A DNA stretch of 61,412 nucleotides, counting the filler, from Hausera hauseri (taxonomy: Eukaryota): the NCBI GenBank assembly GCA_046269625.1. It is 11 parts of 11 records of this genome, joined end to end, with 100 filler letters (N's around TTAATTAATTAA, not from the genome) between each part and the next. Parts side by side here need not be neighbours in the genome. Positions count along the whole stretch, not along the records: positions 57,198 to 61,412 come from JBJURY010695771.1; 10 more parts are not named here. The stretch is one strand, 5' to 3'. Both the position numbers and the translations under genes were made by a program. A model generated the notes under the pieces. That model saw only the letters and a list, made by a program, of their open reading frames with translations. It ran no database searches and had not been told where the DNA came from. Positions 1 to 61,412 of the stretch are shown in pieces. Positions within the stretch are counted from its first letter, which is position 1, and each line of letters begins with the position of its first letter.

Positions 1-725
1 GAAGAACCTTTGAATGATAGAGTCGATTGACGACTCAGTGAGCTTAAGAACGGCATTATAAAGTTGAGCATATGGATAGGTGTGGTGAAGGATGTCGATT
101 ATGTTTGTAATTTTGGTTTTTATAGAAGCAAGTAAATTTAAAAAGTCTGTTGGTTTTGGATGAGGGGTCGACGACGTTTTGTAATTGGAGCTAGAATTGA
201 TGCAGTTTTAGCCATGTTTGGGTAGAATTTTGGCTGTCGAGGAAGTATTCTGTGCAGGGTGAATGAGGAGGGAGTGTGTACTCTGTCGGAGTGTTTGCGA
301 CACTTTGATTGGGTAGGTAAATGATGCAGATCGGTTGTTTGGTGGATTTGTTTGTGGTATCAATATTGGGTAATGAATCCATGCCACCACGGATGCGGAA
401 GTGTATGTGATGGCAGATATAAGATAAAGAAGATTGCAGGGTTCCATCGAGAGGTACCGTGGAGCCGTGGTGTGAGGTAAAAGTCAGGTTAGCAAAGAAA
501 AGTGGAGATGATGTTGTATATGGTATGTGTTTAAGTGTGTTAGTGCATTTGTGCGATGTTTATTATTTAAAAAATAAGAACAGAAAATACAGAGAGATCG
601 TGTAGTTGAGGGCGTGTCGTGGGGCGGCCGCGAATGGTGCCGTCCGACCCAATGGTATGGGGTGGGCGGCACAGGCTTCAGACTCGCCGCGGCGGGTCGC
701 AAATTTCGGGGTAGCCGCGGTCTCC
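1..725 (-). mobile_element. Ty3/Gypsy family-2 element: 3' part of the 5' LTR plus start of gag (decayed)
   Basis: The minus-strand translation (CTEYFLDSQ..TWLKLHQF, HHTYPYAQLYNAVLKLTESSIDSIIQRFF) aligns by eye with the gag N-terminus in contig H (45119-45520). GC-rich 610-725 resembles 45720-45830. The LTR appears to end in CAACATCA at 509, the inverted complement of the LTR start TGATGTTG at 46610. Confidence 0.75.
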
Positions 726-1005
726 GCACGTAAAGTCTCCTCATCGGTCAGTCCATGTTCACTACGCAACAAATCAATTTTACGGATCAATGACAAATTG
801 TTCGCGTCATCCATTGGCGATGGGTCGACCTCAGAGATTACGGCAGTTTCAGGTTCATTACTCCATGAAATAATTTTCTCTGCCAATAATTTAAGTCGTT
901 TCTGGAGTTTATGAGTAGCATCGGTACCGAGTATTTGAAAATATTTGTCATCACTTTTTAATACGTTGGTTTTTATTTTGACCCTTCGAGTTTCAAGTGT
1001 ATGAT

Positions 1006-3250
1006 TTAAAAGACAGAGTACGGTGAAACAACGCCGTCTGCCAAGTCCTGGCGAAAGCCAACCAAATAATTGCGCAACATCGGGTGAGGATGTAACATAA
1101 GAGTGAGCAGAATATTTGACAAAATAAAATTAATGCGAATTTGATTTTGTTTCATACGTCCAAATTTCCCAAAGAACGTTTCAGGGAAATGACCAACAAC
1201 AGCATGTCTAGTTAGTTCCGGATTGCTGTAATAAGTGACAACCATTTTCAAAGCCATATCCGAATTCTTTGGTGAAACATTGTCATCAATTGTTATAATA
1301 CTCTGTAATGACGTGATTGATGTTGTTGGCTGTGGAGGCCGCAATGGATGTGACTCATCTTCCTTTTTTACTTGATTACTGTCAGCAATAATTCTCAGAA
1401 CTTCTTCAAGTGAAGAGGAACAAGATCGAAGAATTCGTGAGTTTACCTGGATGGATTCAAGAGACAATGTAAAGTCTTCGAGTTTTTCGGATTTTGCTAT
1501 TTTATCTAAGTCATCCATAATAATGCCAGAATCGGATGATGATAATGAATCGGGCACAGGGTTGGACTGAACCTTTTTCACAAGTTTGTCGTTCAATGTA
1601 ACACTCGTTTCAGTTGAGGCATCGTCATTTCCGGAGAAATCAAGCATATTATAACTGATCGTATATAGAGACTTCTGTTCCTGAATATTTTCAATGCTCG
1701 GGTACCGGAGTTTGTGAATCAACGATCCAACTGGGAATCCGATTCAAATTTCATAGGTGTTAATGTACTGGCATTGATACTTCGAGATAGTTGTGAGCGC
1801 GGTGTAAAGTTAGAAGAATCCCCTGAATCAAATGATGAACTGCCTACAGTTCTTACAAATCTTGGAGTACTGACTGAGTTGGAATTTCGTCGACGAATAT
1901 CTTGTTTCAGGTAACTGCGAGTATTGATCGAGAAAACCATGAGATGGTTTTTTAGTTTGCATTACGATTGTGTCTAGTGTCTTTTCCATATAGTCAAGTG
2001 ATGGATTAATTCCATTATAGTCAAATTGCGACGTACTTTCACATACTCGGTGACATTTTCAATGGCCATTCGAGTGAAATCGAGAAGTTCTGTGTCGTAT
2101 GTTTCAGCAACAGGAAAGAAATTGGGTCGCAATCGAAGAAAAAGAGAAGATACTTCAAACATAGAATCACGACTAACAACAGAGTTTCTGTACTTTTTAG
2201 ATAAATGTCGACAAGGAATAAGATAACGAAATATCTGTTCAAAAATAACATTTTCACAATTTAATGATAACATAGTTTGAAAGAGTGACAGGGTGGAGAC
2301 ACCCAACCCACTTTTTGAATTCGATGTATTTATTAGCGACTGGAGTATTCGCTGACCTTCATGATTTTCACCAATTATAAAGCATGGAAACGGCTTTAAT
2401 ATTTCCGCTTCAGTAATTGATCGGAGAAATAATCCAAAGTATATGGTATGCGAAATTACTTCGTCCAGAGTTTTTCGATTCAAAGAAGGTCCAGTGACAG
2501 GTATTAAAAAGCAATTATAAATATAATGTGTAACGGCTTTACGTATTAGAGAATGAGACACTTGATTAACTTGGCGACAAAGACGCAGATAGTCAAGAAA
2601 GTGCTGCAATTGTGGACATGTTTTAATGAATGTGCTATTCAGTTGGTCGAGCAACACTACATGACAGAAATCTGGCAGTTTTTTCGGAAGATTGGAATTG
2701 AGCGCACTGAGAAACGTTGGCAGTACCGGACAGAAATCGGACTGAAGTGCGGTGCTGTATGCAATGTCTTCATTTGTAACAGTTAACGTTAATAGGAGTA
2801 AAACGGTATCTCTGGTCTCTTTACCCAAATGACTGTCTCTGTGAAGAAGCGGGATAGGAGGGTTAAGAAGCGGAAAAGGATCTCGGAAAATTGATAAACT
2901 GATTTCACTGCAAGGATTTTGCAATAGAGGTTCATTACTGACTCGCACGCACATCAGCTTCAGCAAATGAACGAGGGCGATTTCCAAGTGACGGCTTGGC
3001 CTAATGTTGTATTCATTAAGAAGACGGAGTAATTGTTCAAGAAACGCTCTGTCGAAACGCACTCGGGCGATAGTAGCCAATAATTGCTGCAAACAGACGT
3101 AAATGTTGACGTTTCAGTCGTTCCAATCATCCCCAAAATGGTGGAAACTCGAACCGTAAATATTGTTGAACAAATCTTCTTGAATTGAATACGTAAATAT
3201 TGCAGAAATATTATTCTCAGATGTCGATGAATTTTCCTCAGTTGGTCTCA
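1006..3250 (-). pseudogene. FHIP1: FHF complex subunit FHIP1/FAM160A-like (RAI16-like family), apparently intronless, with frameshifts and stops
   Basis: ORF 1974-3092 contains SDFCPVL, YIYNCFLIPVTGPSL and LSLFQTMLSLNCENVIFEQIFRYLIPCRH. ORF 1006-1722 ends MKQNQIRINFILSNILLTLMLHPHPMLRNYL. Both match remembered FAM160A conserved blocks. The coding sequence is broken across three frames. Confidence 0.85.
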
Positions 3251-3339
3251 ATATCACCTCAAATTCCCTATTTTTCACAAATGTCCACACATTTAATTAT
3301 TCTCAAAATGGTACAGGTTAAAGCCAACGAAGGTCCGCC

Positions 3340-3830
3340 GCCAGACGTACTGAAAACACAGCCGGTATCGACATACAGAACATCAGCATTAATCCCAGTT
3401 GCTCGACAATCATTTAACAAACTAATACCATCTAATTCACTCTGATTTAACCAGAAATAAAAAATGAACTGAACCAGAAATAAAAATGAACTTTTCTTAA
3501 CATCACCAGTAACATTTAAAAATTCTGCCTGATTTTCCTCTAATCGTTTCCATATAAATTTTTATAAAAGGTACCTCCGATATGGTGGATAACATTTCCC
3601 ACGTTCACCAAAACCTGCAGAACCGCTGTTTATTATTAAAACTTTTGCAAACGGGTCCGATGCTCGTATTAATCTGGCAGCTGACATTCCTGAAATACCA
3701 CCTCCAATGATCAAATAAGGTTCTTCTGTTGGTAAGTTAGATGCAGTTTTCATTTCAGATGCAGCAAATGTCTCTTCTGCACGCTCCTTTTTAGTACCTT
3801 TAGAGGCTTTGTATTGGGCAAGAGCCTTGA
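3340..3830 (-). pseudogene. AIFM1: Apoptosis-inducing factor (AIFM1-like) N-terminal FAD-binding fragment
   Basis: EEPYLIIGGGISGMSAARLIRASDPFAKVLII..PPYRR matches AIF ([37 protein letters not shown]). It is truncated and disrupted by a ~22-bp tandem duplication at 3449-3492. Confidence 0.8.
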
Positions 3831-4934
3831 ATAGGCTGCACAATACAAGTACTAAAATGCAGTCGATAAAACAACTGCTGAAAACGTGGGAAAACAACAA
3901 CTTCAGATTAGAAGGTTTATTTTAATAAATATAGGTTGACAGAGTGATCTCGACGTCGTGTGTAGGGGGAGTTGGACTCGACACCGTGTATGAAGTTGAC
4001 GGAGATGTCCTCGACACCACGTGGTATTTAGTCGATGTTGTCTAGTCTGTTTTGAGACAACATTTCCGTAAATCTGCATTTCGGTTTTCGTTATTATCGT
4101 CACGGCTGCTGCTGTCGATGTTTGGTTGTTTCGGTTTTTTGCTTCGCGTGTAGTTATCTGCAGAAAAGCTAAATGAATATGATAAAAATATTAAAGAAAT
4201 TGATCAGGAAATTATCTGCGTTCTTGTCTGCATCCATTCGATTGAATTTGTATTTGATATCTGATAGTGACGATGGGAATCACTGTTGACAATTGAATAG
4301 GTTTGTTCGCCATGTGAAAACGATAAGGTGTTGATGACAGTATGACTGGCAGAAATCGTGTTCTGATGAGCTGTCGTCAGTTTTGAGGAAACCACGTGAC
4401 GTATTCGAGCCGATGGACAAGTTTTATAACGAATTGATGAGTGATGGGCTCGTCGTAATTTCAGTAATTGCCATGGTCAATAATCAGTATCACTGGATCA
4501 TCGAATAGATCGGGAAACATCGATAGATCGGCCATTCTATTTGTTATAGGTAATGATGACCATGTTGAAGCGGTGTCTGCGGCTGACGACGACGGTGTCA
4601 ACGATGCAGATTTAGTAAAGTTGTGGATTTTCCCTTTTTTGAAAAATTCGACTCTTCTACTAATCTGTGGATTTAAACATGGGTTTAAATCCACAGGTTT
4701 TTGTTAATAATTATGCCTATGGGCGATTTCGTGATTTTTTAGTATGTGATTGTTTTTGCTCTTTGATTTTGTAAAGCAATGCCTTACATATATTATGGCC
4801 AGAATATAAGGAAATCAAAAATCTACTCCTAACCTTTGTAGCAGTAGAAAAAACTATCGAAGACGAGTAAGAACCAGAATTCAAGCGAATAAGAATGGGG
4901 AACGTCGAAGGTTATCTGATAATTGAGTTAGAAA

Positions 4935-6375: not shown

Positions 6376-6475
6376 NNNNNNNNNNNNNNNNNNNNNNNNN
6401 NNNNNNNNNNNNNNNNNNNTTAATTAATTAANNNNNNNNNNNNNNNNNNNNNNNNNNNNNNNNNNNNNNNNNNNN
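6376..6475. other. Artificial contig spacer N44-TTAATTAATTAA-N44
   Basis: An identical 100-nt spacer recurs 10 times; TTAATTAATTAA puts stops in all six frames. Confidence 0.98.
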
Positions 6476-12377: not shown

Positions 12378-13590
12378 GAGTTGTAATTTCGTCACCTGTG
12401 TTTTCATATATGCGTGACTCCGCGCGGATTTCGTCTAATGTGCGCAATGTAACTGTTTCATTTTGTTTATTTTCCACATATACGTGTATTATGTAATCGG
12501 ATTGTGGTTTTAACGAATTACATTCTGTCTGTTGAGTGTTTTTAAATAACGTTACCTTTTTACTGTATGTTGTTCGGCAGCTTATGTGTATGTCATAATT
12601 TAATTTTTCTTGCGCGAAGAACACAATTTTGAATGTGTGCCAAAAATTTAATGGGTATGTTTTCTAATTCTCTTTTAGACGCACTTTCCGAAATAACAGG
12701 TATGACAGTATTACTAACTCGGGTAGTCGGCTTTTCGGTTGTCGCCTCTACTGTAATTTGCCATATTTTATTTGGGTAATATGTTTGCAAATGTTTGCTC
12801 GGTTTATTTGGTCTTACTTCGTATAAGTCGAACTTTATTTTGAATCCTTGATTTACTGGTAGCTTGCAACATGGGTGCTGTACACTGGCGTGAATAGAGC
12901 AGTAATTTTTCCTCGGGTTTCGCCCGTTTACCGCTTCGAAGACAATACTAATTTCTAGACTGTCGTTCAACCCTGATCGAGCATCTACTTGGATACATTG
13001 TTTTTCTCTATTTACCGAAATTTGCTTTATATTTTCGTCCAGTAACTTTACCACTGGATTGGTGGATTGTGGGATTTCTATGGGCTCTTTTCCGAAACGT
13101 CCAGGCCAAGGGGGAATGACCAACTGAAGTTTTGGGTTTACTTCTAGATAGTATTCTGACGAATCAGTTAAGTATAATCGATAAGTGAGAATGTAAACAT
13201 GTTCGTACTCTACGTCGCAACACTGGGTATAATTTCCGGGTTCAAAACCACAGTTTTTCATCACTTTTGTTGTCACGTCATACAGAACAATCTGAAATTT
13301 TCCAAAATCGTGGTGTGGTTTCCAAGTTTTAAACCCTACGCACGTGGAGTCTATCGAAAAGTAATTAAGCGTTATTGACTGTAATAATTTAGTGTCTTCT
13401 TGCTTTTGTATCTCCTCGGTTGTTGGCCTCCTTTTCGCTATATTGTTCTTCTCCTTTAATCCGTTTTTTCTTATTCCGTATACGTCTCATAACGTAGATT
13501 CATCGTCCCACCATTGAGTTCGTATTCTTGTAATATAAGAAGCAAACAAAGATAGTGCTAAAATAATTTGGACATATGAGATCGGCCTAG
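12378..13590 (-). pseudogene. Family-1 post-integrase accessory protein, second copy
   Basis: YVQIILALSLFASY..QWWDDESTL follows the integrase; Cys-rich domains; FN3-type motif CNSLKPQSDYIIHVYVENKQN at 12460-12522. Confidence 0.7.
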
Positions 13591-17358: not shown

Positions 17359-18476
17359 CTATTTTCTCGGAAAGTGCAATATTCTGGGGTCGTTGAGAGG
17401 CTGTCGATAACACATTTTCCTAAGGACTCCGTAACGTTTTGTTCCTTTATAAGGATCTCCTAAACTAATTGTCCTTTTATAGATTTCTGTCTGATATAAA
17501 CTCATTGATTGTTTGTCACAGTTTTCGTAGACTGGAGCGGTAGGGGGTAGCATAGGCAATGGTGCCTTAACGACAGAATACATCTTATGTCTGTTTGTTC
17601 CTGAAAGTACTTCTCCTCCCTTAGGCTCGTCATCCTCTGAATTATTTCTTCGCGTATTAGGTTTTGTAAATTTCCGCTTGTACAATAACATAGGCCTTCC
17701 TTTTCGTTTACGATTATAATAACCGACATGGCGTTCTACGTCCGAATTCCATATATTTTCTTCGTATGCTTTTAAGAACTTTCCAAAAGGTGTTATGATT
17801 GCAGTCAGTATTTTGCATGAAAATCCGGGCAATGTAAATATTTCATACCCATTAATTACTGCTTGGATGACTGCCTTAATCATTTGTATCAGAAAATATA
17901 TCGCTAAGAATCCGGATGCGGCTTGTCCAAAAATCAAAAATCTTCCCAAAATTTTGTAGAGTATTTTTGTAATTACTCGCTAGCAATGGTTTACTCCAAG
18001 CAAGGATTCCTATTTAGCTTGATATCGAGTATCGTGTACTACGGAGGCCATAACTCGGTTTAATTCGTGTGTTCGCTGTCGTAAAAAAGCGAGGTATTAT
18101 CTGAAGGCTTCGATTTCCTTAAGCCTATATATGCCTTTTGACGAGGTGTCTTGAAATTTGTCGTCTGTAATTCCTTTTGAAAGATTTGTTCCTGTTAATT
18201 TATTTGGAGCAGCAGTAATATTTCCATTTGGCAAACTGGCCCAATCTGTTTCACTACGTCTATCATGGGTTCTCCTAAGCTTGCTTTATAATCCTTAAGG
18301 ATTGTTTGTTCAGTTGCATTGTCTAATAGCACTCTAGTGAGTGGCATAGCTAACTTTGGAATATTCTGGTAAATCACGGGAAGTTCCTGCATGCAGCGTT
18401 TTTCTTCAACGTTGATTGGTGCATCTCTTTTCTCACATTCGTAAGTCAATAGTACTTCACCGGTAACTCGACCAAA
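17359..18476 (-). pseudogene. env: Chuvirus-like class III fusion glycoprotein (C-terminal half, TM region and basic cytoplasmic tail) upstream of the protease
   Basis: GRVTGEVLLTYEC..CMQELPVIYQNIPKLAMPLTRVLL, KGIYRLKEIEAFR.YLAF and GRFLIFGQAASGFLAIYFLIQMIKAVIQAVINGYEIFTLPGFSCKILTAI follow the motif series I recall for chuvirus glycoproteins (AGEVxHIIKC, CYxELPV, GIYxxEDL..HIMFP, FGxxSAG..IHGYALH.VYGWS). Confidence 0.8.
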
Positions 18477-38100: not shown

Positions 38101-39082
38101 GGCTGCTCAGTAACCAAACAATCTTCATCAGTGCATGTCCCAGATTCACTCTCCTAAAGACGTAATATTATATTTTTGAACAAACAAAAATGTAATACTT
38201 TTAGAAACTTATATGTATAATCTTAAAAATAAAATAATGAAGGATATTAAACACATTATGGAATAGCTTACAGTCAATGTGCCAATACATCCTTCCACAT
38301 GCAACAGCAATAGTTGCAAAGGCATTTGGCTGCCACATGTAATGCATTTTGATTGTGGCATCTTGGCAAACTCTAATGAATCATAGGAAAGTGGTTCAGT
38401 CGAAAGCTTTTCCTGTAGTGGAACTACAAATAGAATGTTTTTCCCATTGTTTGATGCTGATTTAAGAAGTTTTGTGGAGTAACCCTCAGCCTCAGTTGGA
38501 ACTATGGACAGCCTGCGTCGTCCACTACCACCTATTTGAAATAAAAATAAGTAAATACTATAAACCATGCACTTTCAAAATGAATTAGTATTTGAAGTTA
38601 TATCTTATCATGCAAAAAGTCATAGTTCTCTCCTATACTACTAGAATTGATGGTGTAAATATTGATTAAAAGTCAGATATTGCAACATGTCTGAGGTTTT
38701 GAATTTGAAAAATATGAAAACTTTTTTACTTCAATAATTTAGAAAAAAATGTCACCTGCAGACTTGAAAAACATCCATCCTCCTTGTAAGCTCTTCAATT
38801 TAGGAAATTCCTCCTCGAGCAGAGCCACAATCTAAAATAATAATAATAACAATAATAATAATAATAATAATTCTGATTAGTTTGTATCTGTGTACATACA
38901 GACACACATTTTATTTTTATAAAATGTGAAAAAAAAACCTCAAACCACAAAAAAAAAAATCCACATAAACCCCATACAAAACATGTTCTACTACATTTTG
39001 ATTACCTCATCATGTTTCAAATGGTCTGGCATACTTAACATCCTCTTTCCAAGGCCAGCATGGGCAAGTTCTAGCTCTTCAG
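35188..39082 (-). CDS. Multi-exon HECT-domain / G2E3-like protein gene with a UBZ-like zinc finger (partial, about 12 exons; teleost-type)
   Basis: Exons with GT-AG-type boundaries encode LELAHAGLGKR, EEEFPKLKSLQGGWMFFKSAGGSGRRRL, CPICLVQFPSDVISAHASTC, DAAVGDGVNRH, FEMAGRMMGHCFLHGG and QMRKGIKETGIWRLI. No catalytic HECT C-lobe is seen. Confidence 0.7.
35358..35560 (+). mobile_element. Degenerate tRNA-derived SINE fragment in an intron
   Basis: GGTTCAATCCC B-box followed by TCAGTCGTTGAGTCTTTGAGAAAGAGATTTCAC, resembling the GTGTCCTTGGGCAAGACACTT core of fish SINEs. Confidence 0.45.
38836..38872. repeat. (AAT)n microsatellite
   Basis: Read directly; one interruption. Confidence 0.9.
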
Positions 39083-43400: not shown

Positions 43401-45830
43401 AGGTACCGTCCATTTTTGTACGACGTGTAACGGTGATGACCAAAGAGATTTGGAACGGCGTGCGATGCCGAAACGTTCGAGCTCAATAAATTCGGCTTCT
43501 ACGGCCTGTCTACAACGAGGTGACAGAGGTCGTACATTTTGGCGTATTGGACGTTGGTTCTGTGTGACTATGTATTGCAAAGTGTTGTTTGGGGGAGTAA
43601 AGGAACGGTCTTTTTAAGTACGCGTGGACAACATATGTTGACGAACTGCTGTAAAGTTGTAGGTAACTGTGAAAATTTGGTGAAAGTGGTGGAGCTGTTT
43701 GAGTGGTAGCAGAAGCAATTTGTGAGTTGTTAAGTAATGTACAGTTACGTGGTATTTGGTGCAAGATTGTTGAATTGAAAATGGTGTTGGCTGAAGTATT
43801 TTCGTCGAATGAGTGGACGTTGGTAGCAATACCACAATTGTCGACATTGAACTTCGATCGAATGTCAGTATTATTGTTTAAAAATTTACTAATAGAATTA
43901 TTAAGAAAATTTGAATTAATCGTTGATTTTTTTAAGATAAATTTCCGCCCCACCGTCGACTGCACGGTAGTCAAAACGCTATTTACATGTCCAGAAATGT
44001 CGCCAACAGTACCTTTCCTTAAACATCGCTGGCTGCAGTCAACCAGTAGGCTATAGTGTGAGAGAAAATCAGATCCTAGGATTGCCGACTGGACGTTAGC
44101 GACTGTGAACGACCAGCGGAAAGATGTAGAAAAATTTGGTAATGTGAAAGACAGTGTAGCCGTGCCCGAGATGTGCAGCGGCTGGCCTGAAGCAGTATAT
44201 AAAGGCTTCAGTTTTTATGGAGAATTTTGTGTAGGAAAGGTTTGCGGTAATAGAGAAATTGCTGCCCCTGTATCAATAAGGAAGTCAAGAGATTGAGTTG
44301 TATGGGCAGTGATTGCAGCCTTTAGCGTGAATACTGCAAAAGAGATGTGTCGGCGGTCAGAATGTGAAAGAGTGCCTTTGCCAGAGTTTGCCGTGACCTC
44401 TGGCGACGAAGTTAGTATTTTTGAAAAGATGAACTGGAATGACTGTGAGAAGTGAAGGTAGTACGTCCGTCGTTCGTGTTGCATTTGAAGGTACAGCCGG
44501 TGATACATTTACGTGCTTGATTTTTGAATCTTGCATGGTAAATGCAGAAAACGGTGTCCGAGGTAAACTTCTGGTTATAAAATTGGCAACCGAGGCAGCA
44601 TTTCTGAGCATTAGTGTTGAATCTACTGTGGTAATAGCAGATCGACGAACGTGCAGGTGATGGTGAGCGGTTTCGTGACGTAGAACGGGTACGCGAAGCG
44701 GCAAAACCCCCTCGTCAGGACAAAGACAATTCATTTAATTTATTATTTATGTTGTTGATAGTTGCCTGCAATGCAATATTTTCAGCACGTAGCTGATTAA
44801 GCTGCTGTTCTATGGACGTGTTAGTTGTTTGTATGTCGCTTGCGGCAACTGCTGCTGAAACTACTGGTTGCGAGTTTATGTGTAAGACATCGTATGTCCT
44901 ATCTGCCAATTTGGCCAATTTTTCAAGATGCGTGGAGTCTCCCACCACGGTAAGAAGGGCCCGGATTTGGATAGGTAGGGCATGCAGAAAATAATGGCGT
45001 AGAAAATCCGGGTTATGTTCCTTAGTGACGCCAAGAGTATGCAAGTGTGCTAACGAGGTGTGTAAGAAGTCACTGGGTTTTTGTATGCCCAGTGCATTTT
45101 CGGTAAAGAAACCCTGCATTATGGAGTCAATGGAAGGTTCGGTCTGTTTTAATACAGCGTCAAATAATTGGGTATAAGGGTCAGGGTGATGGAAGATGTC
45201 AAGTAAGTTATGGATTGAGGCTTTTATGGAATTTTAGAGAAGATAGAGTAAGCTATGGGCTTTAGATAAGGGGTCTGTGATACCATTAGACTGTAGCCAG
45301 AGTTGGTGGAATTGAAGCCAAGTTTTACTGGACTTTATTACCTATGAAGTAGTCGGTACAATGTGTAGAAGTATGAACTGGGTTTTTGTCGGAAGAGTTT
45401 GTGTCGGTTAAAATCGGTGGATGATTTGGTTTGGTGTAGTAGAGGATGGTTATTGGCTTTTTTGTGGTGGTTGTATCCGTGGTGTCAGTGATTGGTGGAG
45501 AGTTCATTCCAACACGGATAAGGGGAGTATGTTGAAGCAAGCATGATTTGAAAAAGAAGGTAAAGTTTCATTGAGGTGTATAATAGCGCCGTTTAGAGTG
45601 AGATAGAAGTTTCAAGAACCAAGGGACGAAGAAATACGGGTCTGAAGGGTGGGAATGTGTGAGTGTGTAGTATGGAGGGTATATATGTGAATGTTGTTAT
45701 AAAAAAAGTAAACGAAGGTGGGAGCAGTGGTGCGCCTGGGGCCTGACTTGGGGCCAACGCCGAAGGCGCCATCCGACCAACCGACGCAAGGTTGGCGGCC
45801 GGAACCTCCGCCCCGCACGGCCGGCATGAA
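40480..45830 (-). mobile_element. Near full-length decayed Ty3/Gypsy family-2 element (gag-PR-RT-RH-IN)
   Basis: gag LGIQKPSDFL..LEKLAKLADR plus two CxYHxRF..KC..C knuckles; protease FLIDTGAAISLLP; RT TIDLAKACHQIP..PFGLRNAAQTF; RNase H LTTDTS..FDRELLAI; integrase VHIDIVGP..ITDEGPQF..HPQSNGLLE; PPT (40581-40588) followed by LTR start TGATGTAGT at 40580. Confidence 0.93.
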
Positions 45831-45969
45831 AATGCAGGGTGCCCGAGTTTCCCCTCGAAGCGCGCAATATCGGGATGTTATCTGGTATAGATATTTGGGA
45901 TATTTGATGAAAGATTGGAATTCTGTCAGAAATTTGATAAAAATGCGAATAATTTGTAGTTGGTTTCAT

Positions 45970-46495
45970 TAATCCACATCGCATAATACCAGTAATTTCC
46001 TTAAGACCATCTACATTATTTTCTAAGCATTTTGCATCTCCAAAGTCACCAAGTTTTGCGCGGCACATATTGGTATCCTCGACCTTTACTAAAGATATAT
46101 TATCGGGTTTGATATCACTATGAACAATTTGACTGTCATGTGAATATACAAAAGCCTTTAAAACCTGTTCTTTCCATTGTCTAATGATAAAATCTTGGAT
46201 ATCTCGTATAGTTATTTCGGGTAGCAAACCACTATCGCAGTGTTCGGTAAATATTCGAACCTGACTGAGACTGATATCAACGCCATAATATTTGATAAAT
46301 GACGAATGATTTAATATACAGAGGATGTCGTATTCGAATGAGTTATGAGTATAAGGTTTAATGATAACAACTTCTTTCATGGCTATTATTTTCATCGTAT
46401 CCAAGTTGCATACTTTAAAAACCTTACCGTATCGACCTTGTCCGATAAAACTTGTCTTAACCCATTGAAACGGTACTCGTTTAACGTAATGTAAT
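45970..46495 (-). pseudogene. MAP3K4: MAP3K4/MEKK4-like Ser/Thr kinase fragment (subdomains I-VII), intronless
   Basis: KRVPFQWVKTSFIGQGRYGKV..IIAMKEV..YYGVDI..IFTEHCDSG..IVHSDIKPDNI..KLGDFG..LENN closely follows MEKK4. HRD is changed to HSD and the fragment stops after DFG. Confidence 0.75.
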
Positions 46496-46561
46496 TTATC
46501 CGTTTCGCTACTAGAACAGTACCAGTTTTGAACAGTACCCGTCAGCTTATGAACAAGACAT

Positions 46562-46671
46562 GTTCTCTTTCTTTTATCCTTTATAGTTCTAACTTTGCCA
46601 CGGGGGGGGTGATGTTGTGATCGCGACGACTGTTGTCCTCCGGCCCATTCGGTTGGGCACGGCCGGGTTTT
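46562..46671 (+). repeat. 3' leader, PPT and LTR start of another family-2 copy (inverted relative to 40519-40630)
   Basis: AACTTTGCCACGGGGGGGG-TGATG..CGGCCCATTCGGTTGGGCACGGCCGGGTTTT matches the reverse complement of 40519-40600. Confidence 0.85.
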
Positions 46672-51281: not shown

Positions 51282-51381
51282 NNNNNNNNNNNNNNNNNNN
51301 NNNNNNNNNNNNNNNNNNNNNNNNNTTAATTAATTAANNNNNNNNNNNNNNNNNNNNNNNNNNNNNNNNNNNNNNNNNNNN
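51282..51381. other. Artificial contig spacer
   Basis: N44-TTAATTAATTAA-N44. Confidence 0.98.
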
Positions 51382-51739
51382 CAGCACTGCATATTTTCTC
51401 AAGGTTCGAAATCACATTTTTCTTTTCTTTTGTGGTTAGGTCAAATAAAACAATTTGGAACCTTCCGAAATCATGGTGTGGCCTCCAAGCCTTAAATCCA
51501 ACGCATACTGCGTTTGGCGAGTAATAGTGAATTGTCATCGATTGTAACAATTTATTATCTTCTTGTCTTTGAATTTCTTCGACTGTTGGCTTCTTTTCCG
51601 ATTTAACTGCTTCCGATTTTAATCCACTCTTCCGAATTCCGTATATATCTCCTAACGTAGATTCGTCATGCCACCATTGCGCTTGTATTCTTGGGATGTA
51701 TGAGGCAATTAGTGATAATGCTAAAACTATCTGAACATA
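51382..51739 (-). CDS. Start of the family-1 accessory domain, in one open frame with the integrase C-terminus
   Basis: The ORF starting at 51931 reads GRGPYEV..RPISYVQIVLALSLIASYIPRIQA-QWWHDESTL..CVGFKAWRPHH without a stop. Confidence 0.8.
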
Positions 51740-54700
51740 TGAAATTGGTCTAGTATCTATTGAGGAAGTTTTCATATCACGTTGGCGTAAATTATAACGT
51801 TTGCTGGGTCGTATTTCTGTCTTCACAAACCTTTGTATTGACACAACTTCTTCTTTTCCATTCTTGTTGATATACACTGTGGTTGGCGTGACTCTGGTGA
51901 CTTCATACGGTCCTCTACCCGTGCGAGTCAATTTCAGTGAGGTACCTTTTTTGGCTACTGGATAATGTACATAAACCCAATTCCCTTGTTCTATATCGTG
52001 CGGTTTCGCTTTCTTATCATATTGCTTTTTAAACTGTTCTTGATATTATTGGGATAATTCTTTGGCGATTTCCCAACACTTTTGTAATCGCGTTTGTAGC
52101 ACTTCTGCGAAATTCTGTTCTAAATTTTCGGAATTAACTGTGTATGGCATCATTCCTAAATCTGTAGGTAACACAGCTTCACGTCCATACATCATAAAAA
52201 TGGCGTAAATCCTGTCGCTGGATGATGTGTAGTATTAATTGCGAATTGGGTTCCTTCTAAAAATTCATACCAATCCTTTTGGTCCTTTGCTACTACTGTT
52301 GATAATATGCGTATGACGGTAGCATTCATCCGTTGGGCCATTCCATTACACTGAGGATGATATGCAGTAGTTGTTAATCTCTCGATTTCAAATATTTTGG
52401 TGATTTTCTCGAATAATTCACCGGTAAAATGTCTTCCTCTATCTGTGAGTATCTGGTCTGGGGGTCCATATCAACAAATGATTCTTCTTACCACGGCTTC
52501 TGCTAAGGTTTCGGACTTCTGATCTATCAATGCGACCAATTCGACAAAATGAGTTAGGCGATCAATGCATGTTAAGATATACTTATTGTTCTTGTGAGTC
52601 GTAGGAAGGGGTCCTACGATATCCATCGACATGGCTTGAATAGGCCTGTCGGGTACATCAACTGGTTTTAATTCGGCGATGTAATTTCTCGTCTTCTTTT
52701 CTTTAGTTGCACATACTTCACACGCGTTTATCCAATTTCTTACATCGATATAGATACTAGGCCAAAAGTATATGTTCATTATTCTTTCTAATGTTTTCTT
52801 CCAAGACATATGTCCGACTAAGTATGAATCATGTTCTGACATCAGTACTTCAGTTCGTAAACTTTTGGGAATAACTATCAGCTCCTTTCCTTTCCGTTCG
52901 TAATATAAAATGTCTCCTTTATTTCCGTCATTCAGGACGCAGTATTTGTGTCCGTGTCTGTGTAAATGTTTCTTTAATTGTCGTCCTCTTGGTATGACAT
53001 CCTTTTTAGCAAATTCTATAATCTGCTGGATGACTTTATCTTTTCTTTGTTCTGTTGAAATTTTGATTACCCTATCTATTGTTAACACGCATTGGCGGTC
53101 TATTATTATTTCAAGTTGACTTTTCTTCATTACAGTGATTGCGCTTGTTTTAGTCTTTAATCTCGATAGGGCATCAGCGTCTACATGTTTGTTTCCTGGC
53201 TTATACTGGAATTCGATATTGTATCTGGAGATCTCTTCGATCCATCTGTTTAGTCGGCACGTTGGGTTATTTGCTCGACCCTTTAAAGTTGTAACGGCCT
53301 TGTGGTCAGTGACGATTATAATTTTCTGCCCGTAAACATAAATGTTGAAATGACGCAGTGCTTCTTTTACGGCTAGAGTTTCCAGTTCGGTAACGGAATA
53401 ATTTTTCTCGGCCTTCTTCAAAGAACGTCCTCCGTAAGCGATTGGGTGTTCCAATTATTTATCTTCCTTTTTCTGCGCTAACTCATAATCAATGCCTTCC
53501 TTACTGGCGTCTGCCTTGATTATAAATGGTAAGCTAAAATCTGGATATCTCAAAACAGGTTCGCTTGTTAATATCTTCTTCATCTCACTAAAAGCTTTCT
53601 GCTCAACGTCTGTCCATTTCCATTTAATCCCTTTTTTAAGCAGACTATATAAAGATGCATTAATTTTTTAATTATCTGGTACGTAGGTTGCGTAATATCC
53701 GCATAATCCTAGCCAGTGTCTTAATTCTTTCTGATTTTGTGGCTCTATGCAATTCGATATTTTGTTCAATAACGACTTATCCGGTTTCGAGCCTCCTTCT
53801 CCAACTATATGACCTAGGTAGGATACGGCGTTTTGAGCCCATTTGCATTTCTTCGGATTTAACTTCAATCCGGCTTGTTCCAATCTCATCAGTATGTGTT
53901 CAATATCTTTTAAGTGTTCTTCCTCCGTTCTCGATGCTATCATCACATTATTTAAATATGCAAAGGCATGATACAGTCCCATTAACATTTTGTTCATCAT
54001 TCTTGTGAATATGGCTGGTCCGGTAGTAATACCAAACGGCATAACATTAAACTCGTAAACACCATCGTGAGTTTTAAATGCTGCCTTATAACGGTCTTCG
54101 TCCGCTATTTTCACTTTCCAATATCCGGATTGTAAGTCCAGAGTGGTAAACCATTTCGCTCCTGAGATTCTGTCTAAGGCCTCTTTTACTGAGGGCAATG
54201 GGAAGGAATCCTTCATCATAAAATTATTTAGAGCTCTGTAATAGAAACAAAATCGGTGCTTCGTAGTGTCTTTCTTTTTAACCATAAGAATAGGTGAGTA
54301 ACAGAATCTGTAACTGGGCATAATTATTTCTGCCTTAAGCATTCGTTCAACTTCTTTCGTTATTTCGGGCCTTAACGAATGTGGTGCAGGATACCATTTT
54401 GGCATCTTCTGATCCTCCAGATCTATCTCTTCATTTGAACCAGGCTTTTTCTTGAGCGGAATAGTCAGTTTTAGCGCTTTTCCTCTACAGATATCTTCTT
54501 CATCCTTAGCAATAATCGGTTTATAGCGGCATAATAATTCGTAAAATCGACAGTAAGATTTCGGGGAGAACTTAGTTTCAACATAAGGCGGAAATTCGGC
54601 GTATTTATAAAGTTTCTCTTCGATAGTTATCGACGATATTCTATATGTGTCTACTATAGTAGTATAAGCATAGAGTTTGATAGGAGTTGGTACATTGTTC

Positions 54701-55300
54701 GCTATTCCAATCGGTACACGACCGGAGTGTACTCTCGTAAGTATGTTACTAAGTGTACGTTTCCTTTGGTTCGAAGTATACTGGCTGATCGTCATCCTGC
54801 TGAATTTGTGCGTAAACTATTATCTCCGTTCTTAGTGGGATATTCTCGTCTACTGGTATCCACACTTCCTTTCTATCCTTAGAGTTTTTTACGCCCTTTT
54901 TTGATCTAATCTCAGTTAATTTTCCTGTTTGTAAGTCAATCGCCACCTTTGGTAATCTTTTCAGTAGATCGCATCCTAGAACCACGTCATCGGTTAATTG
55001 TTTTATGATTGCAAATTTATGTCGAAATGTTTGCCCAACTAATTGGACTTCTGGATTCCATTTAAACATTGGTTTTGACATTTGACCAAAGGCTTCTGTA
55101 CTTCCTAGATCTTTCGCAGATGGAGGGTATAGTTATCCTCTTAGCGTCTGAGGTATCGAATCATTTTGATGTACGACATCTCGGAACCCGTATCAATTAA
55201 AGCATAAACTTTCCAATCCTCAATAATGATTTTGGCGAAAGGTCTTCCTTTGATCACTGTTCCAAAACAGTTTGATGCTATATTCAAACGTTTAGTCATT
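51740..55300 (-). pseudogene. pol: Family-1 pol, third copy (PR, RT, RH, IN)
   Basis: ALIDTG (55186-55194), TLDLQSGYW, MPFGITTGPAIF, YLNN (mutated YLDD), TDHK..HVDADALSR, HHCC, SMDIVGPLP. Confidence 0.95.
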
Positions 55301-55489
55301 GATATTTTGTGTCCGTTTATTCGTGCTTCTGCGGCGGAAACTATGTTTTCCGACAACTGTCTTAATTCTTAGTTTGAATATAATTCATTGTTTTCTACAT
55401 GCAGTTCTTCCATTTCATGAGTACTGACTAGCGGCTCGATTGTTGGTATGTAGTTCAGTATGTTGGAAGGTTTTAAATCTTGGGGTGTC

Positions 55490-57097
55490 TCAAACCGTTG
55501 AACTAGTTTCGATATTTTTAGGTTCTCTCGGTGAATATAACATCTTGGGACCATCTGCGGATTGTTGATAGCACATTTTTCGTAGAATTCCGTAACGTTT
55601 CGTTCCTTCGTAAAGGTCTTCTACATTAATTGTTCTTTTATAAATTTGTGTCTGATATAAGCTCATGTACCGTTTGTCGCAATCGTCGTAGATTGGAGCG
55701 GTAGGAAGTAACATGGGCAATGGCGCTTTAACGACAGAGTACATCTTATGTCTATTAATCCATAAAAATGCTTCTCCTCCCTTAGGCTCGTCATCATATG
55801 AGTTATTCTTTCGAGTATTGGGTTTTGTAAATTTTCGTTTCCGTAGGAATATAGGCCTTCCTCTTTGTTTACGATTATAATAGCCAACATGGCGTTTTAC
55901 GTTCGATTTCCATCTATTTTCTTCGTATGCTTTCAAAAATTTTCCAAAGGCCTTATGATTGCAGCCAGTATTTTACATTAAAATCCGGTTAGTGTAAATA
56001 TTTCGTATCCGTTTATTACTGCTTGGATGACTGCCTTAATCATTTGTATCAGAAAATATATCGCTAAAAATCTTAATGCGGCTTGTCCAAAAATTAAAAA
56101 TCTTCCCAGATTTTGTAGATTATTTCTGTTGTTACTTTCGGATAGTGGTTTATGCCAAGTAATGATTCCCATTTAGCCTGATATGTGATGTTGTCTACTA
56201 CAAAGACAATTGCTTGGTTTAATTCATGTGTCCGTTGTCGTGGAAAAGCGAGAAATTGCCTAAAGGTCTCGATTTCTTTCGGCCGGTATATACCTTTCGA
56301 GGAGGTATCTTGAAATTTATCGTCTATAATTCCTTTTGCAAGATTCGTCCCTGTTAGCTTGTTGGGAGCGGCAGTGATACTTCCATTATGCAAACTAACC
56401 CAGTCTGTTTCGCTACGTCTAAACATCGGCTCTCCTAAGCCATTTTAGTCCTCATGATTTCTGTATCCAATTTGCAATCATTCATTATCATTTTGTGATA
56501 TAATTCCGTTAGTCTTTTATAGTAGAAGTAATCGTATCTATTTATCAGGTATTCGTCAATCCGAACATCCTACGTTTCCAATTTGTAAGTTTTTGCGTTT
56601 ATGTCTGTTTCGGCTACAAAGAACTCTTCGTAGTCCGTGGCGAACATTACTACATCGCAGTGAGTCATCATCTCTTTCTTAATAAATTTTAGTCCGTGTA
56701 AGTCCGAGATTAATATAGTAGGGGTAAGGTGTTCCGATACATCTTCGCGTGTTCCTAAATTAGCCTCCGATTTGTCTACCTATCGTTTCCGGTAGTTTCA
56801 TTAAACTTTAACTCTTTAATTTTGATAAAGTTAAAGCTTCTTCCAGACGAAGGTTCCCATATTATGACCGAGCTTCTAAAAGCACAGGTTCCGTCTTGTA
56901 AATGACATTTCTGATTCTCAGTATATAACTTATTGACACTATGGAACATTACCTTCTGTGATCGCATTTCTGATTTGTAGAAATCCACAACTACCACGTT
57001 TGGTTCTAATCCTTTACCGGTATCGTATTCTGCTCCATTGCAATGTCCGGTACGCATATCCAGCCGTCCAGTTACTAATTTTTATGCTGTGATTATC
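55490..57097 (-). pseudogene. env: Chuvirus-like glycoprotein, second copy (central ectodomain to tail, with an internal deletion)
   Basis: TGRLDMRTGHCNGAEY..NVVV, CHLQDGTC..IIWEP, HCDVVMFATDYEEFFV, DEYLINRYDY..ELYHKMIMNDCKLD, KGIYRPKEIETFRQFLAFP, TM FLIFGQAALRFLAIYFLIQMIK. Confidence 0.8.
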
Positions 57098-57197: not shown

Positions 57198-57420
57198 GTT
57201 AAAACATTTTCGATGCACAAAAGTGCTGCATGAATAAGCCACTCTTGACCAGTTGTGCTTCTTTGCCAATCTGTTGAACCAACTTTTAGCTCCTGCACAC
57301 ATGGCAACACGTGAAATAAAACAAAGTAGATGTTCAAGTCAGGTACTCCGCAGGGATCTATGTTCGACCCGCTACTATTTGCAGTAAACATCAATGATCC
57401 TCCATTGCACCATATACCAC
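57198..57420 (+). mobile_element. Non-LTR retrotransposon (LINE) RT fragment
   Basis: SGTPQGSMFDPLLFAVNINDPP corresponds to the GVPQGSVLGPLLF..YINDLP motif. Confidence 0.7.
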
Positions 57421-58030
57421 AATGAAACAAACTGCAGCCATGATAGTACACCACAGGGCCATCACACCATCAAGGGATTATCACTTCTCTATATCATCTC
57501 ATTTCACCTGGCCATTCCCGACAACCACAGAACCCAGGTTTTTTTTTTTTAAATCCCCATTACATTTCACAACTTTTACTAACTATGCTCTCGTAAGCAG
57601 AGACCTAACTCAGCTTACAAACAGCAGACTTGTAACTACTTCATTATTTTCAACGTAACAATATGTAATATAGAATATGCATCACATTTTTTTACCAAAA
57701 AAAAAAAAAAATGAAGTTTTAACTGATATCACCAAACTCCTTCCTCTCTTCCAGTCACACTCTTCTTCTAAATTATATCAATACTACTACCTCAGTGCAA
57801 CTCAGTAAGTCTAAACTAATCCTTTCTGCTAACATACTGCCTTTATTTCCGCACACTCCCAAGATTATGTATGTGTTTGTTTGTTTTCCTTCGGACAGGT
57901 CCACTCCCTGAAGTACTTGTTCCTGAGGTACTAGCCAAGTCACAAAGCTCCCTCTTGGTGTCTGGCCAATATGTACTTATTCCTACTTATTTCCTGGAAT
58001 CACCGAACTGCACAACAAAACACCAATTAA

Positions 58031-58657
58031 CTGATTCAAGAATTACCAGATGCTATAATAGACTATATGACACCAATTCGCTCATTAGCCATGTTTAACA
58101 AGTGGTGTGAAGAACAAGGAATTCCGCCGAGAAAATATTATACCATGATGAATTTGCTTTTAAAAGATGAAGGCAACAAACGGTGTGGTGTTTATTTACA
58201 TGGACTATATGCAAGTGGTAAAACTGTGATGACAGACACAATGTTTAACTGCCTACCAAACATAACAGGCAAAGTAACAAAAGACAATTTTCCATTTCAA
58301 CAACTTGGTGGTAAAAAAATTGTTATCGCTGAAGAAAGTACCATCACTACAGCATTTTTAGACACTTGGAAAGATTTAATGTCTGGTCTTCAAACAACAT
58401 GTTGTTGAAAGGACAACTATCCTACATATGTTAAACCGAACATTGTGCTGATAAACACTAATACACTTCTCCAAAATATGATGACGCGTGAAGAAATGAA
58501 TGTTATGAAAACAAGATTGCATCAATATCTGAATCTTAAAACTCGTAGTTGTTTCAAATCTTTGTATGGTTTAATGCATCAAAAAATGTGGACTCTTTCT
58601 GCAACACCAACTTTAGATGAAGAAAGTTGGCTACGGCAAAACTGTGATGATGCATAG
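58031..58657 (+). pseudogene. NS1: Parvovirus NS1-like SF3 helicase (endogenous viral element), one in-frame stop
   Basis: Walker A GLYASGKT, NFPFQ, Walker B IVIAEE, B' WKDLMSG, motif C VLINTN, Arg finger KTRL. Confidence 0.85.
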
Positions 58658-58699
58658 GATCACGAACCGGTCTTTTGTTGTTTATCAAAGTCGAAGCCA

Positions 58700-60352
58700 G
58701 TGTTTCAAGGTAGTTTTGATGCTATACCAACAGCTATTGTTGTTCCACAACCTCCAGCATCACCCGAATGTTCTACTCGGCCTATGAAAAAGCGTAAACT
58801 GAACCCGGTATCTTTATTAAAAGCAACTCCAGTTGAAAATGATACAGCCTTTGTTGTGTCTCCGACGCCTACCAGAGATATAGAAGTTGTCGATGGCTTA
58901 GACTGTGAAAAAGAGACATTTAAAGCAAAAGTAAAACGAAGTGAAACATTCGAAGTTTTACGTACATTTGACGTTTCTGAAACAGGGCCAACCGTTGATC
59001 TTCCTTCAACTTCAAAAACTGCAGAACAATTATATGCTGGCTATCTGAGTTCTGATGAAGACCTACTCACCTGCGATTGTGATCAAAAGGTATACAAATA
59101 TACAATTTTTCCATTCACTGATCACAAAGATCAATATTATGGGAATAGTTCTTATTTTTACAGAGATGTTGTTGAATTATTGAAGAAAACTGAAAATCCG
59201 GAATATGTTCCGAGTCCATCGTATCAGTATTCGTACATAAGCGACTTGTGTATTGGACCGATTGTCTTGTTACGGGAAGACACAGCCTATGATGATTTGA
59301 ATGCATGTGAAGACATTGATGAAAGGGTGTATGATTTGGTATATGAAAGAATGTTTATTCATCGACAGGCTTTATCTGACTTTTATAATGAGCACGAAAA
59401 TCAATTTCATTATATCCACAGGGCAAAAGTTTTGTATAATCACGTCTTTGTGCCAAGATTCGTCCATTCAGCACAACGAGACAGTGACAACTCCTTACAG
59501 GAGGAATTCACAGATGTATACGCACGAAGAATCTACAAATGGACAGACTGGTCGTATGCATTCAAAGACCTCAAGATTGTCGAAGTCAGACCTGAAGGTG
59601 TGGCTTATTCACCCAGCGAGCCTCCTTATTTTATGTGTCCAGACATTACTAACAATCTACGAACTACATTGCTTAGACTCAGGTCAAAAGATGACACACT
59701 GATCATCAGTGTCTTTGTACCTGAAATCTGGAATTTTGACAGACCGACTCCAACCAGAATTGAAAGGCTTGATTTCAAGTCGAAACTCTTCGATAGATCT
59801 AATATTTATCGCGATGGCTGGCCACAACCGTTTCTGGTACCAGCCTTTCCCAACCAGTTTGACACTTCAGACCTCATTAGCATAAAATGCTACACTTTTC
59901 TGTTAGATCTGTTGCATCAATGTGATCCTTGGCAAGGTCCAAATGTTCATTGTAGAACAGTGAAAGAAGAAATAAGTAGATTCCATGAAAATGTACGTTT
60001 TACCTGGCGACACAGTATGAAATACCTTATTGAGGGTGTTTTTGAAAAATGTAATAATTTCAGAGACGAGCATCACTATTCAGCTCAGTTTTGTTGCCAA
60101 ACAAAAGATCAGGCGTATGAAATTGTTGTCTGCAGTTATTTTCAACCATATGTTTTAGCCTTTTTACCTTTGTTGTTTGCTTTGAAAAAAATTCACAAAT
60201 ACACATCTCTCAGTGATCTTGCTATTACTTTCAGGTATAGCACGTACTGTTTCGAACAGTTCTACTACAGTTTGGCATGGCTCTATGATGATGGACACAG
60301 ACATATTATAACACTGACACCACCAGAAGGCCAGCCACCAGCTTTGGTTTAA
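58700..60352 (+). CDS. 550-aa open frame, in frame with the NS1-like helicase; function unknown
   Basis: ORF starts 58067, 58445 and 58700 share one frame. Contains an NLS-like PMKKRKL. No PLA2 or Gly-rich capsid motif seen. Confidence 0.65.
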   Translation: MFQGSFDAIPTAIVVPQPPASPECSTRPMKKRKLNPVSLLKATPVENDTAFVVSPTPTRDIEVVDGLDCEKETFKAKVKRSETFEVLRTFDVSETGPTVDLPSTSKTAEQLYAGYLSSDEDLLTCDCDQKVYKYTIFPFTDHKDQYYGNSSYFYRDVVELLKKTENPEYVPSPSYQYSYISDLCIGPIVLLREDTAYDDLNACEDIDERVYDLVYERMFIHRQALSDFYNEHENQFHYIHRAKVLYNHVFVPRFVHSAQRDSDNSLQEEFTDVYARRIYKWTDWSYAFKDLKIVEVRPEGVAYSPSEPPYFMCPDITNNLRTTLLRLRSKDDTLIISVFVPEIWNFDRPTPTRIERLDFKSKLFDRSNIYRDGWPQPFLVPAFPNQFDTSDLISIKCYTFLLDLLHQCDPWQGPNVHCRTVKEEISRFHENVRFTWRHSMKYLIEGVFEKCNNFRDEHHYSAQFCCQTKDQAYEIVVCSYFQPYVLAFLPLLFALKKIHKYTSLSDLAITFRYSTYCFEQFYYSLAWLYDDGHRHIITLTPPEGQPPALV

Positions 60353-61005
60353 ACACCCGAAGACAACCAGCAGTTTCCTATATTATTTTTATTGTTGTTT
60401 TAATGCCGTATATACTTGGACCATTGCAGTTATTATACCCTTATTTTTTGCATGTCAGTTATAAATTCAACCTTTGTATAACACTTGATATTATTCCATA
60501 CTGCAATAATCTCTAGCTTATCTGTTGTCAGTTATTTTTATTTACTTTTATTATGTTTTCTATTACACCTATATGTTGTCTCATGCGGTTTACAATGTAA
60601 CTTTTTTCCAGCGTCTCAAATAAAGAGGACATGTCCTCCATTTTTTAATAATGACATGATTGGTTCCCTAAAAATCCCTTCTTCTATCTAAACGGTGGAC
60701 GTGCCGTAGTCTACATACACACTCACACATCACTAAAGGCACACATAACCCGACGAATTAATTTAGCATAGATTTAGAGGTGCCATGGGTTTAGAGTAGT
60801 TTATTTTAGGCACGTTAGTGTTTTGGGTGTGTGAGGGGGCCTACAGTAAGGAGGCAGCCCTTTAGGTGGGTTGGCGACCTCGCTGTAGTTGGGGAAAGGG
60901 GACTCAAAGCTTGGTGGGGGGCTCGGCGTTCTCGCGATAAGACTTTCGCCGTGTGCGGTAGAGGTCTGGGTTCAAATCCAGGTAAATGGTTTGTTTGAAT
61001 AATAG

Positions 61006-61293
61006 CTCGATTATACTTCAAGTGGTAGCGTAGACAAAAAATATAATAGTGAAATCGCCCGCTTAGAAACCTTTCGTGATTGTTGGCTGCCCAAATATTT
61101 CGTTTCACCCGCGGCCCTGGCCAAAAGCGGATTTATTTATGTTGGACCTGGCGATATTGTGAAATGTGTGTTTTGTATGAGAACCCTAAGAAATTGGGAA
61201 CCAAACGATTGTGTGGAGAGCGAACATCGCCGACATTATCCAGATTGTCCATTCGTTCAAGGAAAATGTAAGAATATCGCGCTCAACAGCTAG
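61006..61293 (+). CDS. BIR domain (inhibitor-of-apoptosis type); no in-frame ATG, so an exon or a pseudogene; absent from the ORF track
   Basis: Manual translation: YNSEIARLETFRDCWLPKYFVSPAALAKSGFIYVGPGDIVKCVFCMRTLRNWEPNDCVESEHRRHYPDCPFV, with exact CX2CX16HX6C spacing. Confidence 0.92.
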   Translation, partial: LDYTSSGSVDKKYNSEIARLETFRDCWLPKYFVSPAALAKSGFIYVGPGDIVKCVFCMRTLRNWEPNDCVESEHRRHYPDCPFVQGKCKNIALNS

Positions 61294-61412
61294 TCTTAAA
61301 GAACTATTTCAAACTTAAGTTATGGCGTACAATGTTGTACTTCTTAGGGTTTAGAGTAATAAATGCGAAAATTAAAGTATGTATAATATTCTATACGTCT
61401 ATTGATTATTTA

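Follow-up and report, generated by a model that had tools for sequence, protein, structure and literature searches.

The last contig of the DNA analysed here carries a parvovirus-type helicase followed, in the same frame, by a very long open frame, which raises the question of whether both once encoded a single replication protein or whether the second frame is a gene of other origin. The window, i.e. the whole stretch of 61,412 nucleotides, is a concatenation of eleven unlinked contigs of ca. 4–7 kb, joined end to end by spacers (at 6376, 12278, 18477, 23611, 28021, 32887, 39083, 46672, 51282 and 57098) made of 44 N, a 12-base linker with stops in all frames and another 44 N; arguments from neighbourhood across the spacers are therefore invalid. 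The helicase and the ORF are located on contig 57198–61412, so that nothing to the left of position 57198 is linked to them, and a link to the gypsy element at 51382–57097 was rejected because it is on a different contig. As the contig starts only 833 nt upstream of the feature, missing parts may lie outside a partial insertion.

The remaining contigs differ in composition. The CpG observed/expected ratio is near 1 in nine of them, which carry animal genes and gypsy elements, and only contig 32987–39082 is strongly CpG-poor (0.31), giving by eye a fish-like impression; with two or more compositions among contigs, the assembly comprises no fewer than two organisms. A gypsy-type element frame (17362–17979, minus strand) matches Pfam Monjiviricetes_fusion at its start (E 9e-13), and a similar frame at 55490–55972 (minus strand) looks like a second copy of it; env-like frames were seen at 12596–13486 and 51326–52045. 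Other frames include a FHIP/FAM160-type gene (566–3113, minus strand; RAI16-like, E 1e-35; DUF5917, E 2e-8), with long frames, no evident introns and frame shifts, which is possibly a processed pseudogene, and a protein kinase frame (45700–46671, minus strand; Pfam E 2e-23) whose 3' end looks degenerate.

The region preceding the second stop (Table 1) is a parvovirus NS1-type SF3 helicase, in agreement with the first-pass annotation. It matches Pfam Parvo_NS1 (PF01057) with 37.4 bits, for a cut-off of 20, and E 1.9e-9 over residues 27–195 of 208 with the stop read as X, and the unbroken first 125 residues alone match with E 1.5e-7. Comparison with PDB sequences retrieved 11 solved relatives, two of them chains named non-structural protein 1 and the others AAV Rep40/68, with 21–26 bits; the alignment with AAV Rep40/68 covers residues 301–425 of the latter (E 5e-5 to 2e-4). 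The features shared with AAV Rep40/68 and other Parvovirinae NS1 (PDB 1u0j, 9bc5, 9kbj) are Walker A, NFPF, a Walker B with EE, the spacing of motif B' and motif C, over 124 residues, although at only 22–26 bits and with HUH and VP absent from this contig. A likely arginine finger is presumably located after motif C, at ca. 58511–58519. Motifs A, B, B' and C of the NS1 type, which characterize the SF3 helicase of the Parvoviridae, were all found, using the motif definitions in the accessible text of the zander parvovirus paper (PMC8964545).

As annotated before, there are only two stops in the frame before the longest open frame of the window. The first of them, the TGA inside motif B', removes motif C with all that follows, and this copy thus has a dead helicase; this is a disabling mutation as seen in endogenous parvoviral elements. 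In the alignment, residue 24 of the query stands opposite residue 301 of Rep, so that ca. 280 N-terminal residues are missing, including the HUH nuclease. No Pfam match to an HUH domain was found in six frames of the 833 nt at 57198–58030, which look non-viral, nor any to a capsid or HUH domain in six frames of either flank, which bears out the reported absence of both. The lack of the HUH part is a property of this copy, and the source virus may still have possessed it.

No second copy of the element was found within the window. Of the searches with degenerate helicase patterns, one gave 0 hits and two others gave 23 viral and 72 metagenome loci, none of them a relative by tblastn or motif context. 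The locus search with the helicase retrieved a single locus, L001, through a chance match of eight residues. This locus (1–3885) is a picorna-like RNA virus contig, with helicase, protease and polymerase-like frames recognizable by eye. The copy on our contig is probably an endogenous parvoviral element, and likely a partial copy of rep from a divergent, parvovirus-like virus.

Table 1. Features of the helicase/ORF contig (57198–61412); positions refer to the window.
Feature	Position	Strand	Basis or remarks
Short relic in 5' flank, LINE reverse-transcriptase-like	57330..57400	+	Pfam: no match
Frame containing helicase and ORF	58031-60352	+	exactly two internal stops: TGA 58406-58408, TAG 58655-58657
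NS1-type SF3 helicase domain	58031..58654	+	Pfam, AAV Rep alignment; one stop, N-terminal nuclease part absent
Walker A, GLYASGKT	58202-58225	+	motif scan, AAV Rep alignment
Walker B, IVIAEE	58319-58336	+	motif scan
Motif B', KxxxxGxxxxxxxK	58370-58411	+	motif scan, alignment; TGA 58406-58408 inside
Motif C, IVLINTN	58442-58462	+	motif scan, alignment
TAG, second break or natural NS1 end	58655..58657	+	frame, motif scan; 64 codons after motif C
ORF, stop to stop	58658-60349	+	564 codons; 522 from first ATG 58784
Pro/Ser/Thr/acidic linker, probably disordered	58658..59059	+	composition; helicase-like codon bias, also before ATG
NLS-like motif KKRK, ORF residues 44-47	58787-58798	+	motif scan; directly behind ATG 58784
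Tyr/Phe-rich region, ca. 430 residues, without detected relative	59060..60352	+	Gly 1.9%
Overlapping +1 frame, 133 codons, from ATG	59301..59702	+	reached in 21/1000 synonymous shuffles
AATAAA	60619-60624	+	after T-rich trailer of 266 nt behind ORF
Perfect palindrome, 14 nt	60625-60638	+	directly behind AATAAA
Single BIR (inhibitor of apoptosis) domain in 3' flank	61027..61290	+	between stops; Pfam BIR E 3e-20; PDB

The window has 18 stop-to-stop frames of at least 180 codons, and the longest of them is the ORF behind the second stop, the next one having 382 codons; an open frame of the size of this ORF is expected by chance with a probability of 6e-18 per start. The ORF had been annotated as a 550-aa frame: the long open frame stands, but with the lengths given in Table 1. 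We also found the acidic/Pro-rich linker previously described, with 10% Pro, 19% Ser plus Thr and 15.5% Asp plus Glu in residues 1–135, as well as the NLS-like motif. The rest of the ORF (residues 136–564), described as rich in Tyr, Phe, Cys and His, is indeed rich in Tyr (7.9%) and Phe (7.0%), whereas the content of Cys (3.0%) and His (3.7%) is modest. A pattern scan for PLA2, calcium-loop, LxCxE, HuH, CxxC and HExxH motifs found none in the ORF. The overlapping +1 frame has no Pfam match and is borderline, so it may have originated by chance.

Database comparisons of the ORF were uniformly blank. There was no match in Pfam with the whole ORF (E ≤ 1) or with seven pieces of it (E ≤ 10), in NCBIfam, in Rfam, or in phage genomes by tblastn, and the best PHROGs match had only E 0.04; among PDB sequences there were none at E ≤ 10 with the ORF and only four, at E ≥ 1.2, with its last 180 aa. 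A word-indexed search of a large protein collection retained 0 of 4578 candidates and 0 of 2970 longer ones, and the locus search retained none of two viral and 33 metagenome candidates. These negative results carry less weight than it might seem, because the same word-indexed search also retained 0 of 375 longer candidates for the helicase, despite its known relatives. The ESM Atlas gave no usable match for the ORF core; the last 180 residues scored 0.81–0.85, a level reached by a third of shuffled proteins. Two single-sequence folds of the ORF were of low confidence (pLDDT 33 and 39), with a hairpin and long helices predicted by both in residues 400–545, and a mixed alpha/beta C-terminus. 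Foldseek comparisons of these low-confidence models with the viral and PDB libraries returned no meaningful match, and the best VIA-align match (Z 5.6, rmsd 4.8 over 85 residues) was to generic alpha/beta proteins, with no capsid among the 50 matches listed; given such weak models, these comparisons speak neither for nor against a capsid fold.

Parvoviral VPs are rich in Gly, Thr and Asn, whereas the ORF contains overall only 2.1% Gly and 3.2% Asn, with no Gly run or Gly-rich stretch and no PLA2 motif. This composition, the absence of PDB sequence matches at E ≤ 10 and the long helices predicted in both weak models argue against a capsid gene too divergent to be recognized and placed in the usual NS-then-VP order, which we consider distinctly unlikely in spite of several points that would suit it: the size of 522–564 aa, the position, the N-terminal basic motif and the AATAAA behind the frame. 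Also in its favour, the accessible text of PMC13426907 reports VPs of different subfamilies without detectable shared homology, and that of PMC8964545 a zander parvovirus VP1 of 582 aa likewise without BLAST relatives.

The relation of the ORF to the helicase depends on whether the TAG between them is another break in the frame or the place where NS1 ended naturally. Several observations favour a break. The helicase and the ORF are in one frame throughout, which occurs in 1 of 3 cases by chance, and the 42 codons between the TAG and ATG 58784 are open (p 0.05). Within these 42 codons, A/T reaches 79% at codon position 3 versus 43–45% at positions 1–2 (p 0.002), and GC at fourfold sites is equivalent in the helicase (18/77) and in the 134 codons after the TAG (19/70; Fisher p 0.70); with this helicase-like codon bias and equal fourfold-site GC, the 42-codon stretch would once have been coding, in frame, before any ATG, and this favours one long NS1 over a separate gene or a capsid. 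Moreover, the context of ATG 58784 is weak (C at −3, A at +4), no AATAAA or TATA was found between helicase and ORF, and a crude scan of 57700–59100 gave acceptor-like sites only at 57754 and 57898, and none near the TAG. A second nonsense stop is also plausible because the element already has one that is certain. The acceptor-like site at 57898 is strong and lies in the helicase frame (57873–57930, plus strand), with a donor-like site ca. 30 nt later; this pair may have been left over from viral splicing or may be due to chance.

Conversely, the TAG is placed just past the Pfam match, which ends at residue 195 of 208, and this is a natural stopping place for an NS1. ATG 58784 and the KKRK motif open 522 codons that form the last frame before the AATAAA, where a capsid gene of similar length would be located. 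The codon bias fades in the 430-residue region (fourfold-site GC 48/139 vs. 37/147, p 0.09), as might also be the case in a gene that was captured or separate. Additionally, the searches made found no second copy and no homolog. The TAG might thus end a short-tailed NS1, with the 564 codons being a separate, non-capsid viral gene for a nuclear accessory protein, expressed through ATG 58784 or a splice. The stop directly behind the helicase domain, the ATG followed by KKRK and the weaker codon bias in the ORF core would agree with this arrangement, and parvoviruses with large extra ORFs of no assigned function exist, as in the megaparvovirus described in the accessible text of PMC13426907; there, however, the extra ORFs are upstream of NS1, not downstream. 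Since the 42 codons before the ATG show a coding-type bias, the ATG context is weak and an acceptor-like site near the stop is absent, we regard a separate accessory gene as unlikely, if less so than a capsid.

We favour instead one long NS1, which we give about an even chance of being right, with ca. 630 residues behind the helicase core, made up of the linker and a predicted fold of ca. 430 residues. The C-terminal extension proposed in the first-pass annotation is accordingly favoured by the codon bias across the TAG, the weak ATG and the lack of a nearby acceptor, and is opposed by the position of the TAG at a plausible end of NS1. From the offset of the AAV alignment, we infer that the continuous NS1 of the source virus would have had ca. 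1,050 residues.

The distribution of stops bears on yet another explanation, a helicase fragment beside, or in the same frame as, an unrelated ORF of host or transposon origin, or an ORF kept by host selection. Every stop is in the helicase part, but this distribution is not significant, be it for both stops falling within the first 209 of 773 codons (p 0.07) or for a single stop (p 0.27), and the earlier suggestion of a domesticated element with an intact C-terminal part is left unsupported. A fusion of NS1 to a host gene has been described (accessible text of PMC12297876); on our contig, the codon bias is continuous across the TAG, and the ORF is free of introns and matches no family. The ESM Atlas gave a weak lead to HTH_Tnp_4 transposase clusters (0.84, residues 385–564), a score within the range attained by a third of shuffled proteins, and a Harbinger/ISL2EU-type transposase was rejected because Pfam HTH_Tnp_4 and DDE_Tnp_4 matched none of the seven pieces at E ≤ 10, nor the whole ORF at E ≤ 1. 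Likewise, no terminal repeats were found and the element occurs as a single copy in the window, which leaves a transposon lineage, also put forward previously, without support. Overall, we assign a low probability to an origin of the ORF in the host or in a transposon, or to its domestication.

Integration into host DNA is likely, judging from the flanks only. Both are non-viral-looking, although their CpG content differs: the 5' flank (833 nt) has stops in all frames and contains a short relic that we take to resemble a LINE reverse-transcriptase motif, and the 3' flank contains the BIR domain. Terminal hairpins, whose search had been proposed, were not found in either flank (none stronger than −14 kcal/mol per 100 nt), as expected for a partial insertion. 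There is no poly(A) run after the AATAAA, and an mRNA retrocopy was judged unlikely for this reason. The CpG content changes sharply at ca. 60751: the share of C with a G behind it is 10% up to this point and 30% beyond it (0 of 300 shuffles reach this split). In an order-2 model the segment 57198–58600 groups with the CpG-poor contig and 60700–61412 with the other nine, the ORF being intermediate. This change is a possible insertion boundary or a possible chimeric join, and the contig may therefore be chimeric. The BIR domain and the CpG-neutral DNA beyond ca. 60751 are probably not part of the element, and the domain may be an exon, a pseudogene or a mobile fragment; a tRNA B-box-like motif occurs just upstream of it, at 60969. 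Adintoviruses encode IAP homologs (accessible text of PMC8502044) but, the BIR domain aside, there is nothing adintovirus-like on this contig.

The shift in composition, the short contigs and the mixed assembly also agree with a partial assembly artefact, in which a free or segmented virus was mis-joined to host DNA and the stops are errors or variants of defective genomes; segments with only NS exist, according to the accessible text of PMC10267136. We consider this very improbable, because the 833 nt upstream lack an HUH frame and have stops in all frames plus the LINE-like relic, and hairpin ends are absent.

Rep-only endogenous elements with stops are common (accessible text of PMC6631224, PMC5013282, PMC13055364 and PMC11521997), and ours resembles them in being derived from NS1, without a capsid, with nonsense stops, on a short scaffold and near transposon relics. 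Unlike it, their NS1s average ca. 650 aa (mean length of 648 aa in PMC13055364), and 560 extra in-frame codons behind the helicase are not described in the accessible parts of these papers. The zander parvovirus NS1, of 651 aa and with motif C at 437–443, has a tail of 208 aa after motif C, versus 64 or ca. 630 codons here (accessible text of PMC8964545). In the text accessible to us, the longest NS1 among the parvoviruses compared is that of the pipefish virus, Syngnathus scovelli chapparvovirus (Ichthamaparvovirus; PMC6631224), which likewise has a long NS1 and comes from fish assemblies, although its 807 aa fall short of the ca. 1,050 aa estimated here, in a comparison by length and not by sequence. 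The Swazi bat-associated megaparvovirus group also has a large ORF without homolog, and endogenous copies with stops; however, its orphan ORF is upstream of an NS1 of 561–611 aa and VP follows, whereas here the orphan frame is behind the helicase and in frame with it (accessible text of PMC13426907). Large ORFs without an assigned function are reported in parvoviruses both there and in bioRxiv 10.1101/2024.03.25.586562, whose supplement maps may hold this layout. An NS1 with a tail this long is not described in the accessible text of the literature searched, which included few subscription papers, and the architecture, known from a single degraded copy, is undescribed-looking.

In parvoviral NS1, the HUH domain nicks the terminal hairpin and the SF3 ring unwinds DNA. 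The source virus of a long NS1 would have used the HUH domain missing here for nicking and the SF3 ring for unwinding in the same way; the linker and its basic motif, a predicted nuclear-import signal, would bring the protein to the nucleus, with the linker holding a large folded module outside the helicase ring. The accessible text of PMC10920228 reports a nuclear location of NS1 and a contribution of its termini to the activation of the capsid promoter. By analogy with the shorter NS1 tails, the tail would most likely be a nuclear regulatory module, acting on promoters of the virus or on host factors. Part of the rep gene would then have entered animal DNA and begun to decay. This copy cannot replicate, because the nuclease part and the hairpins are absent and motif C is cut off by a stop, and its tail could be produced only from ATG 58784 or via splicing. 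It is possible, though on balance doubtful, that the element represents an undescribed parvovirus-like lineage of aquatic animals, having an NS1 of ca. 1,050 residues with a 430-residue domain of a new family, in which the cassette ends at its own polyadenylation signal without a capsid gene, the virus being segmented, ambisense or capsid-borrowing.

With one dead copy so far, the weight of this proposal rests on finding relatives. The 564 codons would be a suitable query with which to find the lineage in animal assemblies, where a search based on capsids would overlook it. Should the ORF instead be an unrecognizable capsid, it would mark a very divergent particle. Parvovirus replication proteins are compact, mostly of 550–800 residues in the accessible text of the literature compared; if the favoured reading is true, a lineage with a large, unclassifiable domain on the helicase would widen what an NS1 can carry and would provide a new viral protein family to characterize.
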